The notes under the pieces: model-generated
Database searches by the model: none
The model's input: only the letters and a program-made list of their open reading frames with translations
What the model was told of the DNA's origin: nothing
In this document: positions 879-6,819 of the stretch, piece after piece
Layout of the letters: each line of letters opens with the position of its first letter
How positions within the stretch are numbered: position 1 is the stretch's first letter
Made by a program: the position numbers and the translations under genes
IMG/VR virus record: IMGVR_UViG_3300017991_000096
Span: 1 to 64,000 of that record
Origin: a virus
DNA: 64,000 nucleotides
Reading direction: 5' to 3' (one strand)

Positions 879-1361
879 ATGGCGGGTCCGAACCACTGGC
901 AACCCTCGCTGCTCGCGGTCCCCTCGATGGGGACGCTCGACCCCGTGGACTCCCGCGTCACCGCGCTCAAGGAGTTCAACATCAGCCGGAAGTCAACGGG
1001 CAGCATCGACGGCGCCCAGCGCCTCTACGCCTCCGAGTCCGAGGACCCCAACGTGGTCGCTCCTTTTCTGGAGCGAAACATGCAGAATGACTACCAGAAT
1101 CGGTGGGTTCAGGACCGTCACTACCTTGTCATGCAAGGTGGTGATACCCTCTACCATACTCCGACCGACACGGCGCACCGGCAGAACCCCAGTCCTGCCC
1201 CTCGATTCCTCCCCGTATTCGACCGCCCTACTGAGGACCGCTCCGACGCGAGACGGGTCCGCAACCACGAGAGGGTTCCCTTCCCCGACCGAGCCACACA
1301 GCTTGGTCACTTCCCGAAGGGCGAGATCGACAACGTCAGGAACCGAGGAGGCTGGCCGTGA
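879..1361 (+). CDS. Hypothetical head-region protein
   Basis: Tightly packed ORF with GTGA overlap to the next gene; typical codon usage. Confidence 0.7.
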   Translation: MAGPNHWQPSLLAVPSMGTLDPVDSRVTALKEFNISRKSTGSIDGAQRLYASESEDPNVVAPFLERNMQNDYQNRWVQDRHYLVMQGGDTLYHTPTDTAHRQNPSPAPRFLPVFDRPTEDRSDARRVRNHERVPFPDRATQLGHFPKGEIDNVRNRGGWP

Positions 1362-1843
1362 GCACAAGCGAAAAGGTGAAGCGACTCGTGGCGGCTGCCG
1401 GCGTCTCGGGAGTCAACAAGCCGAAGCTCACTCCGAAGCACCCGACCAAGAAAGGGATCGTGGTCGCCAAGGAGGGGGACAAGGTCAAGACCATCCGCTT
1501 CGGCGCGCAAGGCTACGGGCACAACTACTCCAAGGGCGCCCGCTCCAACTTCAAGTCCCGGCACGGCAAGAACATCAAGAAGGGGAAGATGAGTGCTGCC
1601 TACTGGGCCGACAAGAAGTTGTGGGCCGGCAAGGGCAAGAGCACAAAGGCGCCCCCGAAGGGTCAGAAGCATGTCAAGGGCAAGGGCGACAACGACGTGA
1701 CCCATGCCGGCGGTCTGTGTCACCACCCCTCGCACCGTTGCGCCCCAGGGGCCAATGGTGTGGCTGGGCTCAAGCATACCGGCGTCGCTGTGGACCTCGT
1801 GCAGAACATCTCCGGTGTTCCCATGGCTAGGGGGCGACGATGA
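1358..1843 (+). CDS. Basic protein, DUF5754-like N-domain plus His-rich C-terminal module
   Basis: KTIRFGAQGY...RSNFKSRH...KMSAAYWADKKLW is a motif I recognise from phage and viral small proteins. GAGGAGG RBS upstream. Confidence 0.75.
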   Translation: MSTSEKVKRLVAAAGVSGVNKPKLTPKHPTKKGIVVAKEGDKVKTIRFGAQGYGHNYSKGARSNFKSRHGKNIKKGKMSAAYWADKKLWAGKGKSTKAPPKGQKHVKGKGDNDVTHAGGLCHHPSHRCAPGANGVAGLKHTGVAVDLVQNISGVPMARGRR

Positions 1844-2229
1844 GTTGGCAGAGCACACCCGCACAGGTGATCTCAGGCGCAGACACACGCAAGAAGAAGC
1901 GCGCCAGCGACAAGGTCGCCACCGTGATGCAGGAGTTCAAGGCGGGCACCCTCCGCTCGGGCAAGCCCGGTCGCGGCAAGGGGCCCGAGGTGACCGATCG
2001 CAAGCAAGCCATCGCCATCGCCTTGAGCGAGGCTGGTGTCGCCGCGGACAAGCGGCAGAAGCGACGCCGCAAGAACGAGTCGAGCCATCACGGCGGCCTC
2101 GTTCACGGGCCATCACACCGACTCGACTGCGTCAACCCGGTGTGCGGCATCAAACACAGTGGCGAGCCCCGAACCATGCTCGCCCAGAACTACGCGGGTG
2201 TACCAGTGACGGAGAAGCGACATGGCTAA
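1840..2229 (+). CDS. DUF6496-like basic protein plus His-rich C-terminal module
   Basis: KVATVMQEFKAGTLRSG...VTDRKQAIAIALSEA signature. Confidence 0.8.
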   Translation: MSWQSTPAQVISGADTRKKKRASDKVATVMQEFKAGTLRSGKPGRGKGPEVTDRKQAIAIALSEAGVAADKRQKRRRKNESSHHGGLVHGPSHRLDCVNPVCGIKHSGEPRTMLAQNYAGVPVTEKRHG

Positions 2230-3193
2230 AAGCAAGATGGGTAAGAAGGGTAAGGGCGGAGGCGTCGATGGCTGGGTGACGATCAACGGCGCTCGTGTCC
2301 CCATCACCGGGGGCCAGCTTGGAGGCAAGGTTGGCAAGAAGGTCGCTCGGACCTCCAAGGGCAAGAAAACCGCCAAGTCCAAGAGCGGCGCCACCGCTTC
2401 GAGCGGCGCTAGCAAGGCCAAGAAGTCCTCGAAAAACAGCGCGGCTGCGGCTGCCAAGAAGGTCGGCAAGAAGGCTCCGGCGAAGGAGCAGTCGAAGGCA
2501 GCCGCAAAGAAGTTCCGCAAGAACGTCACGGCGCAGCGCAAGGCCGAGCAGGCGGCCGAGGTCAAGAAGCATGGCGCCAAGACTGTCGCCCGTGAGCGAA
2601 AGTCTCTCGAAAAGGGCCGGAACCCCGAGAAGGGCAGCAACAAGAAGTCCTCAGCGTCGAAGGCTACCAAGGCCCACTACGAATCTTTGGTAGCCAAGGG
2701 CATGTCGAAGGACAAGGCCCGCGCACAGGCTGCTGCGAAGTACGCCGAGCTACAAGGCGGAGGCAGGAAGTCAGGGCAAAAGGCGTTCAAGGAGTACACC
2801 ACCCGCCAGCAGTGGCACGGGAAGGCGAAGGAGAAGCGCGCCGCAGGCGATGACAGAGGAGCCGCAGCCACTTCTCGCGTTTCGGTGCGGCCCTTCATGC
2901 GGAAGGAGCGGGACAGGTGGCGCAGCAAGAAGGGCAACGAGTCCTCCCACCACGGGGCACTCGTCCACGGTCCTGCCCACCGCGTCGGCGGGTCGAACCC
3001 CATCGCTGGCATCGTTCACTCGAACGAGCCACGCACGAACCTCGTGCAAGATCTCAGCGGTAACCCCACCACCGCTGGTAGAAGAACGGGCCCAGGACCG
3101 GAGGCCCACGTCCGACCGCTGATGCCGGGTGGCGTCAGAGTGGGCGGCGGACGAACCATGGGCACCCTGGCCCGTTACGGAGGAAAGAAGTGA
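2222..3193 (+). CDS. Histone H1-like Lys/Ala-rich protein plus His-rich module
   Basis: Very K/A/S/G-rich; N-terminal GWVTINGARVPI motif; shared module near the C-terminus. Confidence 0.8.
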   Translation: MAKSKMGKKGKGGGVDGWVTINGARVPITGGQLGGKVGKKVARTSKGKKTAKSKSGATASSGASKAKKSSKNSAAAAAKKVGKKAPAKEQSKAAAKKFRKNVTAQRKAEQAAEVKKHGAKTVARERKSLEKGRNPEKGSNKKSSASKATKAHYESLVAKGMSKDKARAQAAAKYAELQGGGRKSGQKAFKEYTTRQQWHGKAKEKRAAGDDRGAAATSRVSVRPFMRKERDRWRSKKGNESSHHGALVHGPAHRVGGSNPIAGIVHSNEPRTNLVQDLSGNPTTAGRRTGPGPEAHVRPLMPGGVRVGGGRTMGTLARYGGKK

Positions 3194-3567
3194 TGAAGCA
3201 CGGCAACATGAGTCACAAGGGCACGAAGTCTGGCGACAGCAACTACATGGGATCGAAGCAAGGACACATGGGTCCTGGCTCCTACCCGCGGCGCCCTGGG
3301 TCGGGCATGAACACGGGCGCCCGCGCGACGGGTGGGACCATGCAGCATGACGGCATCGCCAACTGCCGCGACTGCATGAAAACCAAGGCTCGTGGTCGCA
3401 TGATGGGCAACAAGGCCGCGGCCTCCATCCAGTCCCTCACCAGCCGCGAGATGGGGATGGCGGAGCGTCCGTCATCTGTGGGCGGTGTCCACGGGCACAA
3501 GACCCGCCTCGGTCAACCTCACAACCCCGCCATGGCGGGCTACGGCAAGAAGAAGTCGTCCTGCTAG
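3190..3567 (+). CDS. Small basic Gly/Met-rich protein
   Basis: Overlaps the previous stop; contains CRDC and a degenerate His-module copy. Confidence 0.7.
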   Translation: MMKHGNMSHKGTKSGDSNYMGSKQGHMGPGSYPRRPGSGMNTGARATGGTMQHDGIANCRDCMKTKARGRMMGNKAAASIQSLTSREMGMAERPSSVGGVHGHKTRLGQPHNPAMAGYGKKKSSC

Positions 3568-3810
3568 ATGGCACGGGGACGCACCAGTACGACTGAGCCG
3601 TGGCTTGCGGGCACCGGCTACCAAGGTCGAACCATCCTTGCCGTCACCGGAGCGGGGCGCGGTCGCGCTACTCGTGACGTGGCGCTCAAGGGCGGTGTCA
3701 AGCGCGTCCCCGTCCCCATCCTTCAAGACCTCATCCTGGTGGAGAAGGGCTATGAGCCCAAATACAGCGGGCTGACACTCGCAGAAGTAGAGAAGCTGAG
3801 AACGGGTTGA
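3568..3810 (+). CDS. Hypothetical protein
   Basis: ATG directly follows the previous stop and the ORF fills the gap. Confidence 0.6.
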   Translation: MARGRTSTTEPWLAGTGYQGRTILAVTGAGRGRATRDVALKGGVKRVPVPILQDLILVEKGYEPKYSGLTLAEVEKLRTG

Positions 3811-3847
3811 AACTCCGTCAAGGCTCAAGCTATACAGGGAGATACGC

Positions 3848-4186
3848 ATGGTCGATACGATGCAACCTCGCGGAGCCGGCAAGAAGGTCGGACACCAGTA
3901 TCCTCCCCTCTACGTCGAGGAGGAGGAGAAGGATGGGGTAGAGATGCTCTACCCTGCCGCCAAGCGCGGCATGGGCGGTGTGACAGGAGCGAACACCGCC
4001 AAATGCCCCTACGGCAACACAGTCCTCGCCGCTGCCGTCAAGACGGACAGCGGTATGGGAGAACCCCGTGGCGAAGCTCCGGGGCTCAACCTTGCCTACG
4101 GTAACGTAGGCATGGGAGACGCCAACGACATGGTACGGGATCGAACCCCGCGCCCCACCCTCAACCGCAGAAAGCAGAAAGGCTAG
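3848..4186 (+). CDS. Hypothetical protein
   Basis: GGGAG RBS; fills the gap. Confidence 0.65.
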   Translation: MVDTMQPRGAGKKVGHQYPPLYVEEEEKDGVEMLYPAAKRGMGGVTGANTAKCPYGNTVLAAAVKTDSGMGEPRGEAPGLNLAYGNVGMGDANDMVRDRTPRPTLNRRKQKG

Positions 4187-4192
4187 AAAGCC

Positions 4193-4471
4193 ATGATGAA
4201 GTCCAGCACCGGACAGGGCGCAGCGGCCCGTCCCACCGTCGATGTCACCCGTGAGGGCAAGTACCCCAACGACAACACCTCTGGCGAGCGCAGCCAGGGT
4301 GAGGTCGCGGGGGCCGGCAGCATCTACGCCGCCGTGCTCAACGAGCGCCCGAACATCAGCAACCCGCGCAACCAGGGCCCGGTTCGAGCGCACAGCCGCG
4401 TCGGCAAGTCCACCATCCCTATCGCCATGGTGCGAACTCGTCAGGATGGCAAGGTCGCCGGCTCGATGTAG
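4193..4471 (+). CDS. Hypothetical small basic protein
   Basis: Fills the gap; typical codon usage. Confidence 0.65.
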   Translation: MMKSSTGQGAAARPTVDVTREGKYPNDNTSGERSQGEVAGAGSIYAAVLNERPNISNPRNQGPVRAHSRVGKSTIPIAMVRTRQDGKVAGSM

Positions 4472-4501: not shown

Positions 4502-5788
4502 GTGAACCTCAACCGACTCAACTCGATGGGTGACCTCCTCGGCCTGTTCAACCAGGCCCCCGGTCAGCCCGTACCCGCCCCACAACAGGCCCCGCAACAG
4601 ACCACGTTCGACCCGAACGACCCCGCGGTCCAGGCCGCGATGCAGCTAGCCCGACAGCAAGAGCGGGACGCTCGCATCGCGGAGATCGAACGCCTCAAGT
4701 CAGAGAACTCGGGCCTCAAGACCCAGGTCACCGACGTGAACTCGCGTCTCGGTGCTCTGGAGAAGCAAGCTCAGCAAGCCGCCGAGCAAGCCAAGGCCGC
4801 CGAGATGGCGAAGATGAAACCCGACGAGAAGGTCCAGGCCCAACTACAGGCCCTACAGGACGAACTCAAGCGGTCCCGTGAGGAGCAACAGCGCACCGTC
4901 TCGGAGGCCAACAAGCGGGTGGAGGCGTGGCAGATCGAGAGCGAGAAGAACGCCATCATCGCCAAGCACAACGGTCAGGTCGATCCTCTCGCACTCGACA
5001 CCTCCAGCATTGAGGCGCTCCGCGCTTCGGAGGGTCGGGCTGTCCAGACCTACCAGGCAACCCGACAGCACTTCTTCTCGCAGTTCCAGCAGGAGATGCA
5101 GTTCCTCCAGCAGCAGGAGGCATCTCACAACCAGCAGCAGGTTGAGCAGCTTCCGAGCTACCCACCCGGCTACGGTATGCCTACTCCCAACAATGCCGGC
5201 TCACCCGCGCCGGCACAGGCCAACGGGGCACCTCCCCAGTTCACTCACCCCCAGATCGACGGCGGCCAGTCCTACGCTGCCGTGCGGCAGATGGCTCACG
5301 GTCGCGTCGTGCAACAGGCACCCGCGCCCAACGGCCAGCCGTTCTTCCAACCGCAGTACCCCCAACAGCAGCAGCCAGGGGCAGTCCAGCAACCGCAGGG
5401 CTCCCCCACCGGGCCGGTTCAGCCGGCTCACATGCAGCCACAGCAGCAACAGCCGCAGTGGCAGGGACAGCCGCAGCAGCCCCCACAAGGGCAGCAGCAG
5501 CCGTTGGTCGCGCCGCTACCGGATCCGAACCGGCAAGCCAGCGACCCCGCCCGCAACCTCACTCAGACTGAGGTCGCAGGTGCCATCGAGCACGCCAGAG
5601 CCATCGTGGAACAGCGACGAGGTTCTGGGGGGCTCTCGACTACCTCACGGGCTGCCACGGCAGCCCTACAGGCAGATCGTAAGGCTGGGGGTCATCAACC
5701 CAACGTCAACCTCCCCACGCCCACCACCGGGTTTGGGGGTAACCTGATGAATCACCCGATGGCGGCTCCCCGACCGGGGACCGTCTAA
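4502..5788 (+). CDS. Capsid scaffolding protein (coiled coil plus Q/P-rich tail)
   Basis: Long heptad coiled coil immediately upstream of the major capsid gene; AGGAG RBS. Confidence 0.7.
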   Translation: MNLNRLNSMGDLLGLFNQAPGQPVPAPQQAPQQTTFDPNDPAVQAAMQLARQQERDARIAEIERLKSENSGLKTQVTDVNSRLGALEKQAQQAAEQAKAAEMAKMKPDEKVQAQLQALQDELKRSREEQQRTVSEANKRVEAWQIESEKNAIIAKHNGQVDPLALDTSSIEALRASEGRAVQTYQATRQHFFSQFQQEMQFLQQQEASHNQQQVEQLPSYPPGYGMPTPNNAGSPAPAQANGAPPQFTHPQIDGGQSYAAVRQMAHGRVVQQAPAPNGQPFFQPQYPQQQQPGAVQQPQGSPTGPVQPAHMQPQQQQPQWQGQPQQPPQGQQQPLVAPLPDPNRQASDPARNLTQTEVAGAIEHARAIVEQRRGSGGLSTTSRAATAALQADRKAGGHQPNVNLPTPTTGFGGNLMNHPMAAPRPGTV

Positions 5789-5835: not shown

Positions 5836-6819
5836 ATGCCAAGCGTTCTGAACACCGCAGCGGCCCAGGGGGCCGGTTTCAACCAGCTTCTCGCGGCAAC
5901 CCGAGACGTGTTCTCGGCCGAGATCTGGTTCGCTGCACTTCCCATCCTCAAGTTCGACCAGTTCACGACCAAGCGCACCGAGCTTGGTGTGCAGCCCGGC
6001 CGCACCATCCAGATCCCGCGCTACGGCAACATCAAGCGCGGCGGTCGTCTCACCGAGGGCAAGCGCCTCAAGACGCAGGCGATGAGTCTCTCGCAGCAGA
6101 GCATCACCGTCTACGAGTACGGCAACGCCATCGCGTTCTCGGAGTACCTGCTCCAGACCAGCTTCTACGACCAGCTTGCCGCTGCGTCCATGCTGCTGGG
6201 TCGTGACATGGCCGTCGTCCTCGACACGGTGCTGCGCGACGCGATCCTCAACGCCCAGAGCGTCGTGTTCGGCGGTCAGAAAACCGCGCGCAACCTCGTC
6301 GTCGCGGCCGACACCTTCGACACCATCGTCATCAAGGATGCGGTCGAGACGCTGGAGACGAACAACACCCCGAAGTGGGCCGGCGATCACTACATCTGCT
6401 TCATGCACCCGCACCAGGCGCGGTCCCTGCGTGACGACAACGACTGGATCAACGCCTCGCTCTACAGCGGTGCGACCCAGATCTACACGGGCGAGATCGG
6501 CCGCTACGAGGACGTGCGGTTCATCTCCACCACGGTGATGCCCAACGGGGCCAACCCCGCGATCGACCCCGACACGGGTGACTACGTGGACATCGGCTTC
6601 GACCCCGACCTCGAACTCGGGGCCGGTGGCAACCAGGTCACCATCTACCAGGCGGTGTTCTTCGGGGAGTACAGCCTCGGACACGCCACCGCGCTCCCCG
6701 TCGAGCTACGCGACAACGGGGTCGAGGACTTCGGGCGCGAGCACGGGCTCGCCTGGTACTCCATCTGGGGCCAGAACATCCTCGAAGATGTCAACATCGT
6801 GGTCGCGGAGACTGCGTAA
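5836..6819 (+). CDS. Major capsid protein (N4-gp56 / Bxz1-like family)
   Basis: FSAEIWFAALPILKFDQFTTKRTELGVQPG, EYGNAI, GEIGRYEDVRF, LPVELRDNGVEDFGREHGLAWYSIWG. Confidence 0.92.
   Translation: MPSVLNTAAAQGAGFNQLLAATRDVFSAEIWFAALPILKFDQFTTKRTELGVQPGRTIQIPRYGNIKRGGRLTEGKRLKTQAMSLSQQSITVYEYGNAIAFSEYLLQTSFYDQLAAASMLLGRDMAVVLDTVLRDAILNAQSVVFGGQKTARNLVVAADTFDTIVIKDAVETLETNNTPKWAGDHYICFMHPHQARSLRDDNDWINASLYSGATQIYTGEIGRYEDVRFISTTVMPNGANPAIDPDTGDYVDIGFDPDLELGAGGNQVTIYQAVFFGEYSLGHATALPVELRDNGVEDFGREHGLAWYSIWGQNILEDVNIVVAETA

Follow-up and report, generated by a model that had tools for sequence, protein, structure and literature searches.

A conserved four-histidine module at the C-terminal end of unrelated basic proteins encoded in the head gene region of a phage

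Cargo proteins of encapsulins are otherwise unrelated, but carry loading peptides at the C-terminus, and their genes adjoin that of the HK97-fold shell. The peptides are short motifs of Gly/Ser/Leu type without histidine, which bind the interior of the shell. To our knowledge, the targeting peptides described so far are short and loosely conserved. In phages, a precedent is the targeting peptide (CTS) of T4, which is common to the diverse internal proteins IPI-III and Alt (PMC3012670, PMC7411985). The T4 CTS stands at the N-terminus, has 10-20 residues and is removed by the prohead protease gp21. The N-terminal packaging signal of P1 DarB is likewise a precedent for a targeting signal on head proteins (PMC9024508), and a passage in PMC7411985, citing Duda et al. 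2013, has the C-terminal region of the HK97 gp4 and SPN3US gp245 proteases as thought to direct the protein into the prohead.

The window analysed here is a stretch of 64,000 nucleotides from a 79-kb viral record (~90% complete); the phage is uncultured and marine, and the sequencing runs in which its DNA occurs are labelled as sediment and seawater metagenomes, with no RNA run among those listed. The window opens within the gene of an SPP1-Gp6-like portal protein, which has 700 aa at full length in L006, and the scaffold and capsid genes follow (Table 1). The major capsid protein is 52% identical to the major head protein of Bacillus phage BCD7, and 43% identical to that of the Streptomyces phage BRock group. 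A preliminary description of this DNA had reported that three consecutive ORFs between portal and scaffold, here ORFs A, B and C, have unrelated N-terminal parts but share a four-histidine module of ~50 aa at or near the C-terminus. Both the location and the module are confirmed, at the positions first given, with BLASTP E values of 1e-9 (A/B), 4e-10 (A/C) and 6e-20 (B/C); outside the module BLASTP found no further significant similarity between the three proteins. An HMM built from six copies scores 98-111 bits for those of the window, against 8.6 bits for the runner-up among 1313 six-frame window ORFs, and the whole 79-kb record holds these three copies only. The module-bearing ORFs have Shine-Dalgarno sites and overlapping stop/start codons, and lie within the portal-scaffold-capsid gene string.

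Table 1. Features of the window from the portal gene to the major capsid gene
Feature	Coordinates	Strand	Details
Portal protein, C-terminal 291 aa	1..876	+	phrog_64; Pfam SPP1_portal E 8e-24 on L006:1315-3414
160-aa ORF, function not assigned	879..1361	+	many relatives
ORF A, 161 aa, pI 10.7	1358..1843	+	N-domain 1358-1660 of phrog_7595 type
ORF B, 129 aa, pI 10.5	1840..2229	+	DUF6496 at ~1894-2052
ORF C, 323 aa, pI 11.3	2222..3193	+	Lys/Ala-rich N-terminal part, WVTING leader
Module copy, ORF A	1691-1840	+	
Module copy, ORF B	2074-2226	+	
Module copy, ORF C	2936-3085	+	
ORF D, 125 aa, basic, His/Gly/Met-rich	3190..3567	+	without module; ends YGKKKSSC
Two small ORFs (3568-3810 and 3848-4186)	3568..4186	+	partly conserved; matches in L075, L078
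Conserved 92-aa gene directly upstream of scaffold gene	4193..4471	+	not a module copy
Scaffolding protein, Gln/Pro-rich	4502..5788	+	phrog_172 E 1e-4, position, relatives
Major capsid protein	5836..6819	+	homology to phage head proteins

The invariant core of the module spans 28 residues, N-x3-H-x-G-x-L-x-H-x3-H-x5-7-N-x3-G-x2-H, and is followed by a short tail, EPRT-x-L-x-Q-N-x2-G-x-P; in ORF C a further 35 aa come after the module, ending in YGGKK. Nine positions, including the four histidines, are invariant over six copies (41-59% identical to the ORF C copy). Two residues of the consensus first proposed, P24 and R27, vary once the wider family is considered. The DNA copies are only 53-58% identical, with pS of 0.57-0.70 and dN/dS of 0.22-0.46, and the conservation is therefore at the protein level, as had been supposed. 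Silent sites are saturated, which together with the dN/dS indicates that the copies are old and maintained. The module is real, under purifying selection, portable between N-terminal domains and located in the head region. It matches no characterised domain, in agreement with the preliminary description, and is a previously undescribed, unclassified domain family. Degenerate half-copies had also been suggested in ORF D and in the gene at 4193-4471. Both were rejected: ORF D scores -3.2 bits with the HMM, and the other gene gives no HMM signal and belongs to a separate small family, 35-62% identical in the 16 relatives with a locus that covers this place.

We propose, tentatively and with a probability of about 0.35, that this is a small metal-stabilised His4 module through which basic proteins of the head interior dock or co-assemble, in a phage for which no prohead protease was detected. 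ORFs A-C are most likely candidate internal head proteins. They are very basic and translationally coupled, and would be late proteins produced along with those of portal, scaffold and capsid, each combining an independent basic N-terminal domain with the portable C-terminal module. The module core most likely folds with a metal ion at its centre, for which the four invariant histidines are the predicted ligands, and the module would give unrelated proteins one common contact, candidates for which are the scaffold core, the C-terminal extension of the portal, the inner capsid surface or other module-bearing proteins. Proteins bearing it would enter the procapsid before DNA packaging; metal binding, docking and presence in the virion are here what we infer from sequence. 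The module would also stay on the protein, unlike the cleaved T4 targeting peptide, because no prohead protease was detected: the 79-kb record has no match to Peptidase_S78, S78_2 or S77, the S77 search being a weak one whose control search gave no match anywhere.

With the T4 CTS the module has in common a single element on diverse basic proteins that accompany DNA, and a variable locus (PMC3012670, PMC7411985). However, it is C-terminal, ~50 residues long and His-rich, and neither a short N-terminal propeptide nor its removal by a prohead protease was found in this record. Like the encapsulin peptides it is C-terminal on unrelated proteins that are encoded near an HK97-fold shell gene, but the Gly/Ser/Leu-type motif is absent from the module alignment and no sequence relation was found. 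The P1 DarB signal and the MuF/SPP1 gp7 domain resemble the proposed docking module in that they, too, carry accessory proteins into the head ahead of DNA packaging (PMC9024508), although the DarB signal is N-terminal and the 79-kb record has no Phage_Mu_F (PF04233) domain.

The N-terminal domains had been labelled DUF5754-like (ORF A), DUF6496-like (ORF B) and histone-H1-like (ORF C), and only the second label stands, with 52.9 bits against a Pfam gathering cut-off of 24 (E 4.7e-14). The ORF A domain matches phrog_7595 (E 6e-25) and part of phrog_220, but no Pfam family at E<=1, DUF5754 included. The N-terminal part of ORF C has no Pfam match, the globular winged-helix domain of linker histone H1 included, and resembles H1 tails in its Lys/Ala-rich composition only; its leader found no match by tblastn against phage records. 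In ICP1, the last ~60 aa of the capsid protease belong to the same family as the N-domain of ORF A, which places this family inside a procapsid in at least one phage. This homology concerns the N-domain of ORF A and not the His module, which sets the module apart from the C-terminal regions of prohead proteases.

Other carriers are few. A search of 1.84 billion cluster representatives with the profile yielded three only (P0003, P0004 and P0005), and scans of the relatives' loci added a first-half copy in L070 and a degenerate copy in L060. In all, the family has ~eight members in roughly 15 billion proteins. Searches by word in 5.8 billion proteins gave the window's own proteins, P0003 and P0005 only, IMG/VR scans with the module, P0003 and P0004 gave two identical fragments only or none, and a scan of GTDB genomes found none. 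P0003 is an orthologue of ORF C with the same leader, module and tail, whereas the N-domain is DUF5872 in P0005, Cys/His zinc-finger-like in P0004, and yet another new domain in the L070 ORF. As an optional C-terminal addition, the module is joined to N-terminal regions of six kinds or more; three N-domain families are known both with and without it, and it is appended cleanly past the natural end of complete domains. The L060 homologue of ORF A lacks it and stops at PPKGQK, DUF5872 homologues in IMG/VR end at ~residue 137, and L078 has the P0004-type domain without the module. The prediction that profile hits would be fused to diverse N-domains and lie between portal and scaffold is borne out in a very small sample, the second part for the loci that can be read: in every one of these the carrier is directly downstream of the portal, before the conserved gene upstream of the scaffold.

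Adjacency of ORFs A, B and C might suggest that the module is a functionless relic of local gene duplication, the N-terminal parts having then been replaced, and the degenerate and truncated copies in L060 and L070 would fit this. Nine positions have nevertheless stayed invariant despite silent saturation, with the dN/dS given above, and the N-domains also exist without the module, which indicates gain by fusion rather than a leftover. We regard a relic as highly improbable.

Searches of Pfam, NCBIfam, PDB sequences and the ESM Atlas gave no usable match to the module; the PDB sequence matches were conotoxins only (E 0.8-0.9), and the three module pieces matched no Pfam family at E<=10, zinc-finger and HNH families included. 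AlphaFold2, run with a six-row alignment, returned an uninformative, low-confidence model (pLDDT 59.7) that is coil for the most part and has a small hairpin at 47-57. HH-x14-N spacing is an HNH-like pattern, and an HNH-like reading of the module was dropped, as no profile backs this spacing. The module could instead be a metal knuckle which binds nucleic acid and tunes DNA binding or condensation by basic proteins, with no capsid addressing, a role comparable to that of retroviral nucleocapsid zinc knuckles. It is similar to zinc knuckles and HNH fingers in size, in its invariant metal-ligand-like residues and in its place on basic nucleic-acid-binding proteins, but differs from them in that the candidate ligands are all His (H-x5-H-x3-H-x12-14-H) and in that no Pfam or PDB hit was accepted as a match. 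All carriers are strongly basic (pI 10.4-11.3), the four histidines are invariant, and in L060, whose two modules are truncated or degenerate, first-half-only forms retain the His core. The DUF5872 protein of Roseobacter phage CRP-9 has a different C-terminal metal motif of two CxxCxGxG units, so small metal motifs recur without sign of a shared tag. A well-conserved, His-rich domain of 50 residues also looks more like a metal- or nucleic-acid-binding domain than like known targeting peptides. However, a knuckle leaves unexplained why a single phage should need the same one on three different DNA-binding proteins and why the module is restricted to genes of the portal-scaffold interval; it also has to contend with the absence of any known zinc-finger or HNH match, and with a module that is itself not especially basic. 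On balance we consider it rather unlikely.

The stretch from portal to scaffold is hypervariable: relatives differ in what it contains and in its length (1.1-5 kb), and very basic proteins are frequent among its products (K+R up to 0.29). The 160-aa ORF at its start is 31-36% identical to same-position ORFs of L065-L069, L071 and L076. Compared with L060, the window has 75% identity in the N-domain of ORF A but only 43% in the flanking portal end, which suggests cassette exchange. The module family does not extend beyond one small clade of phages and is absent from relatives with an 81% identical capsid protein and similar scaffolds, which would not be expected of a tag that docks on a conserved component of the head. 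Its presence is not matched by that of any partner gene, and shows no link to the type of portal or scaffold C-terminal end. Across 12 relative loci spanning the interval, no other module shared among interval proteins was found at BLASTP E<1e-4, a search that short tags would escape. In Siovirus, CRP-9 and S-CRES2, the same N-domain families adjoin endolysin and spanin genes and not head genes. Rarity, the missing and degenerate modules in L060, the N-domain families beside lysis genes, the lack of a co-varying partner and the low-confidence coil from AlphaFold2 were counted against docking.

This variability, the unequal identity of ORF A and the portal end, and the neighbouring lysis genes in other phages would also be expected if ORFs A-C were late accessory, non-virion proteins in a 'moron-like' slot, the module binding a host factor or sequestering metal. 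Against this, tight coupling ties the genes into the string of head genes, one of the N-domain families is fused to the ICP1 capsid protease, and scans with Pfam, PHROGs and NCBIfam matched no defence or counter-defence family; such a role seems improbable.

The docking module that we favour could be narrowed to a metal-dependent, uncleaved C-terminal cargo-loading domain for a protease-less, scaffolded HK97-fold procapsid, a cassette-swapped counterpart of the encapsulin peptide, although this narrower form is doubtful. If it were true, phages would have a cargo signal of a new type, which is C-terminal, as large as a domain, uncleaved and probably dependent on metal, and which would also serve as a compact tag for loading foreign proteins into shells derived from phages. 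The portal-to-scaffold interval would then be a swappable cargo locus, comparable to the internal-protein loci of T4. A DNA-binding His4 knuckle would instead be a new small metal-binding domain. The value of the finding is limited, as the module is rare and neither the phage nor its host is in culture. Contigs from four sequencing runs are nearly clonal, with few differences between them.

ORFs A, B and C, three consecutive small basic-protein genes between portal and scaffold, are present as the preliminary description claimed. Their stops and starts overlap, each is preceded by a Shine-Dalgarno site, GC3 is 0.78-0.82 and the pI of the products is 10.5-11.3. The claim that these otherwise unrelated proteins share a segment of ~50 aa at or near the C-terminus (the module) also holds, as this is their only significant mutual similarity (BLASTP E values of 4e-10, 6e-20 and 1e-9). 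With a six-copy HMM the three copies reach 98-111 bits and no other ORF of the window exceeds 8.6 bits; there is no fourth copy in the whole record. Degenerate half copies had been proposed in two further genes, and neither stands: ORF D scores -3.2 bits, and the conserved gene 5' of scaffold belongs to a different family.

The copies have only 53-58% DNA identity and a dN/dS of 0.22-0.46, in agreement with the proposal that conservation is at the protein level. Silent sites are near saturation (pS 0.57-0.70), which together with the dN/dS values indicates that the copies are old and have been kept by selection on the protein. These selection data speak against the weaker rival that the module is a functionless relic of duplication, which we consider highly improbable. 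Across six copies nine positions are invariant (N, H, G, L, H, H, N, G, H), with the His residues spaced H-x5-H-x3-H-x12-14-H.

Coordinates of the features discussed
Sequence	Feature	Positions
Window	Hypervariable portal-to-scaffold interval	879-4471
Window	Semi-conserved ORF after portal	879-1361
Window	ORF A	1358-1843
Window	ORF A N-domain	1358-1660
Window	Segment of raised depth	1541-1694
Window	ORF B	1840-2229
Window	ORF C	2222-3193
Window	ORF C leader	2222-2300
Window	ORF C tail	3086-3190
Window	ORF D	3190-3567
Window	ORF D tail	3520-3567
Window	Second semi-conserved ORF	3848-4186
Window	Conserved gene 5' of scaffold	4193-4471
Window	Scaffold	4502-5788
Window	Capsid protein	5836-6819
L060 (contig of related phage)	Region with first module copy	1512-2024
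L060	Region with second module copy	2338-2721
L061 (Celeribacter P12053L)	ORF A-type gene	
L062 (ICP1)	ORF A-type domain of gp125	5001-5174
L063 (S-CRES2)	ORF A-type and DUF5872 genes	
L064 (CRP-9)	gp66, DUF5872	3566-4048

The module is rare. A HMMER search with the three-copy profile against 1.84 billion cluster representatives (E<=0.001) matched seven proteins, two of them the window's own; two others were long repeat proteins, judged spurious after their sequences were read. The remaining three are real carriers, two with other N-domains, as would be expected of a module fused to diverse proteins: in P0004 (162 aa) the N-domain is Cys/His zinc-finger-like, and in P0005 (170 aa) it is DUF5872, followed by the four-His core only. 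The third, P0003 (478 aa), is an ORF C orthologue with the WVTING leader, the module and the YGGKK tail in common. The leader, G-x-WVTINGARV-x-I, had no tblastn match in phage records, and similar tails end ORF C, P0003 and ORF D (ARYGGKK, ARYGGKKR and AGYGKKKSSC).

Word-based searches and scans of IMG/VR, JGI metagenomes and GTDB genomes added just one locus, a 2.7-kb contig of a related phage (L060), which encodes three proteins after its portal gene. The first is an ORF A homologue ending exactly where the linker and module start in the window, the second is P0005, and the third is P0004-type with a degenerate module cut off where the module of P0005 also ends. Both copies terminate immediately behind the four-His core (GLRHSKD and GLKR, then stop), and the second has lost three of its four His. 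Among 22 IMG/VR relatives gathered via the capsid protein (46-81% identity), a single one (L070) has a module-related segment, NEESH-GGGLVHHPSH, which clearly matches the first half of the core; it is on yet another protein, between portal and the conserved gene 5' of scaffold.

In these sequences the module is a neat C-terminal appendage, and the domains in front of it are found by themselves as well. ORF A-type proteins without it end in YWADKVxW (Siovirus, CRP-9, S-CRES2) or PPKGQK (L060), DUF5872 proteins lack it in 52 IMG/VR loci (the two translated end near residue 137), and the P0004-type domain lacks it in another relative (L078). Hence at least six kinds of N-terminal region carry the module, and three of these kinds are seen in module-free form too. 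Window and L060 have 75% identity in the ORF A N-domain but only 43% in the adjoining portal end, which suggests movement of the cassette between phages.

Regarding the N-domains, DUF6496 was correctly assigned to ORF B, whereas Pfam gave no match for ORF A, described as DUF5754-like, and the histone-H1 likeness of ORF C is in composition only. In PHROGs, ORF A matched phrog_7595 and part of phrog_220 ('minor head protein and DNA pilot'); its N-domain is of phrog_7595 type and ends YWADK..W. Many marine phages have this domain as a small gene of its own, and in sediment and seawater metagenome contigs depth is up to 25-fold higher over part of ORF A, which shows that the segment is common to many other organisms in those samples. 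In ICP1 the domain makes up the last ~60 residues of the capsid protease, after Peptidase_S78_2, and this fusion is the only direct tie of these N-domain families to the procapsid interior. Outside the clade, marine podoviruses and cyanophages have small ORF A-type, DUF6496 and DUF5872 genes side by side, usually adjoining endolysin and spanin-like genes. ORF A-type and DUF5872 genes are adjacent there in CRP-9 and S-CRES2; P12053L has its ORF A-type gene in the same setting, and a Siovirus record of the same length (38,889 b) has a DUF6496-like tblastn match beside that gene. These genes appear to form a recurrent set coding for small basic proteins. The CRP-9 DUF5872 protein is divided over two ORFs, the second with a C-terminal extension of two CxxCxGxG units (a DnaJ-like zinc motif).

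In T4, P22 and T7, proteins inside the head are present in the procapsid before packaging (PMC3012670, PMC7411985, PMC8402733); they must enter beforehand because DNA threads through the portal. The late, coupled and strongly basic proteins of the portal-scaffold interval are good candidates for head cargo. The simplest reading of the module, tentative and at a probability of about 35%, is a common contact of these candidates, with an assembly partner or with one another. The four invariant His suggest a metal ion, predicted to hold the core together. AlphaFold2, run on six aligned rows only, gave the module a pLDDT of 59.7, with an unstructured His core and a small tail hairpin (pLDDT 72-74); this low-confidence model fits a metal- or partner-dependent fold, and equally a shallow alignment. 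The strongest points against a capsid-loading or co-assembly signal are the rarity of the family, its absence from relatives whose capsid and scaffold are almost the same, the decay of the L060 copies, and the lack of an identifiable partner in the comparison with relatives. The main rival, rather unlikely in our view, is a nucleic-acid-binding metal knuckle that addresses nothing; the two CxxCxGxG units of CRP-9 show that such proteins do carry other metal motifs. A non-virion accessory role is a weaker rival and improbable.

T4 CTS, the P1 DarB signal, MuF-type anchors, prohead-protease C-terminal regions and encapsulin cargo peptides are the functionally closest known systems. The module belongs to none of them, being C-terminal, domain-sized, His-rich, apparently uncleaved and without a profile match, and is new as a sequence family. 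It is real and portable yet narrowly distributed, and its role is still putative.

The window makes up the opening 64 kb of an IMG/VR virus record of 79,245 bases (~90% complete), and all large ORFs are on the + strand. At least eight public sequencing runs, with sediment or seawater metagenome as their label, contain near-identical DNA. For the capsid protein, identity is 52% with Bacillus phage BCD7 and 43% with the Streptomyces phage BRock group. These are tailed phages that have sheath genes; their portal, scaffold and capsid genes follow one another directly or almost directly, and their examined records carry no protease annotation. Domain searches of our record found no S78, S78_2, S77 or MuF domain. 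The window starts inside an SPP1-Gp6-like portal gene (700 aa, from an identical fragment). In the clade, portal is followed by a semi-conserved ORF of ~130-160 aa, a variable block, a second semi-conserved ORF, the conserved gene, scaffold and capsid. The interval is hypervariable (1.1-5 kb in total), its proteins often very basic (K+R up to 0.29) or His-rich with 250-300 aa, and BLASTP (E<1e-4) found no second shared module among the block proteins of the 12 relative loci that cover it. The conserved gene lies directly 5' of scaffold in each of the 16 relatives with a locus that covers the position (35-62% identity); its 92-aa product, without a family match, has the motif LNERPN-x-SNPRN-x-GP. 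Throughout the clade the scaffold is a long protein of 370-456 aa with a high content of Gln and Pro (16-30%); its C-terminal end comes in at least two forms, F-x-Q/E-RF...PPI and ...HPM....
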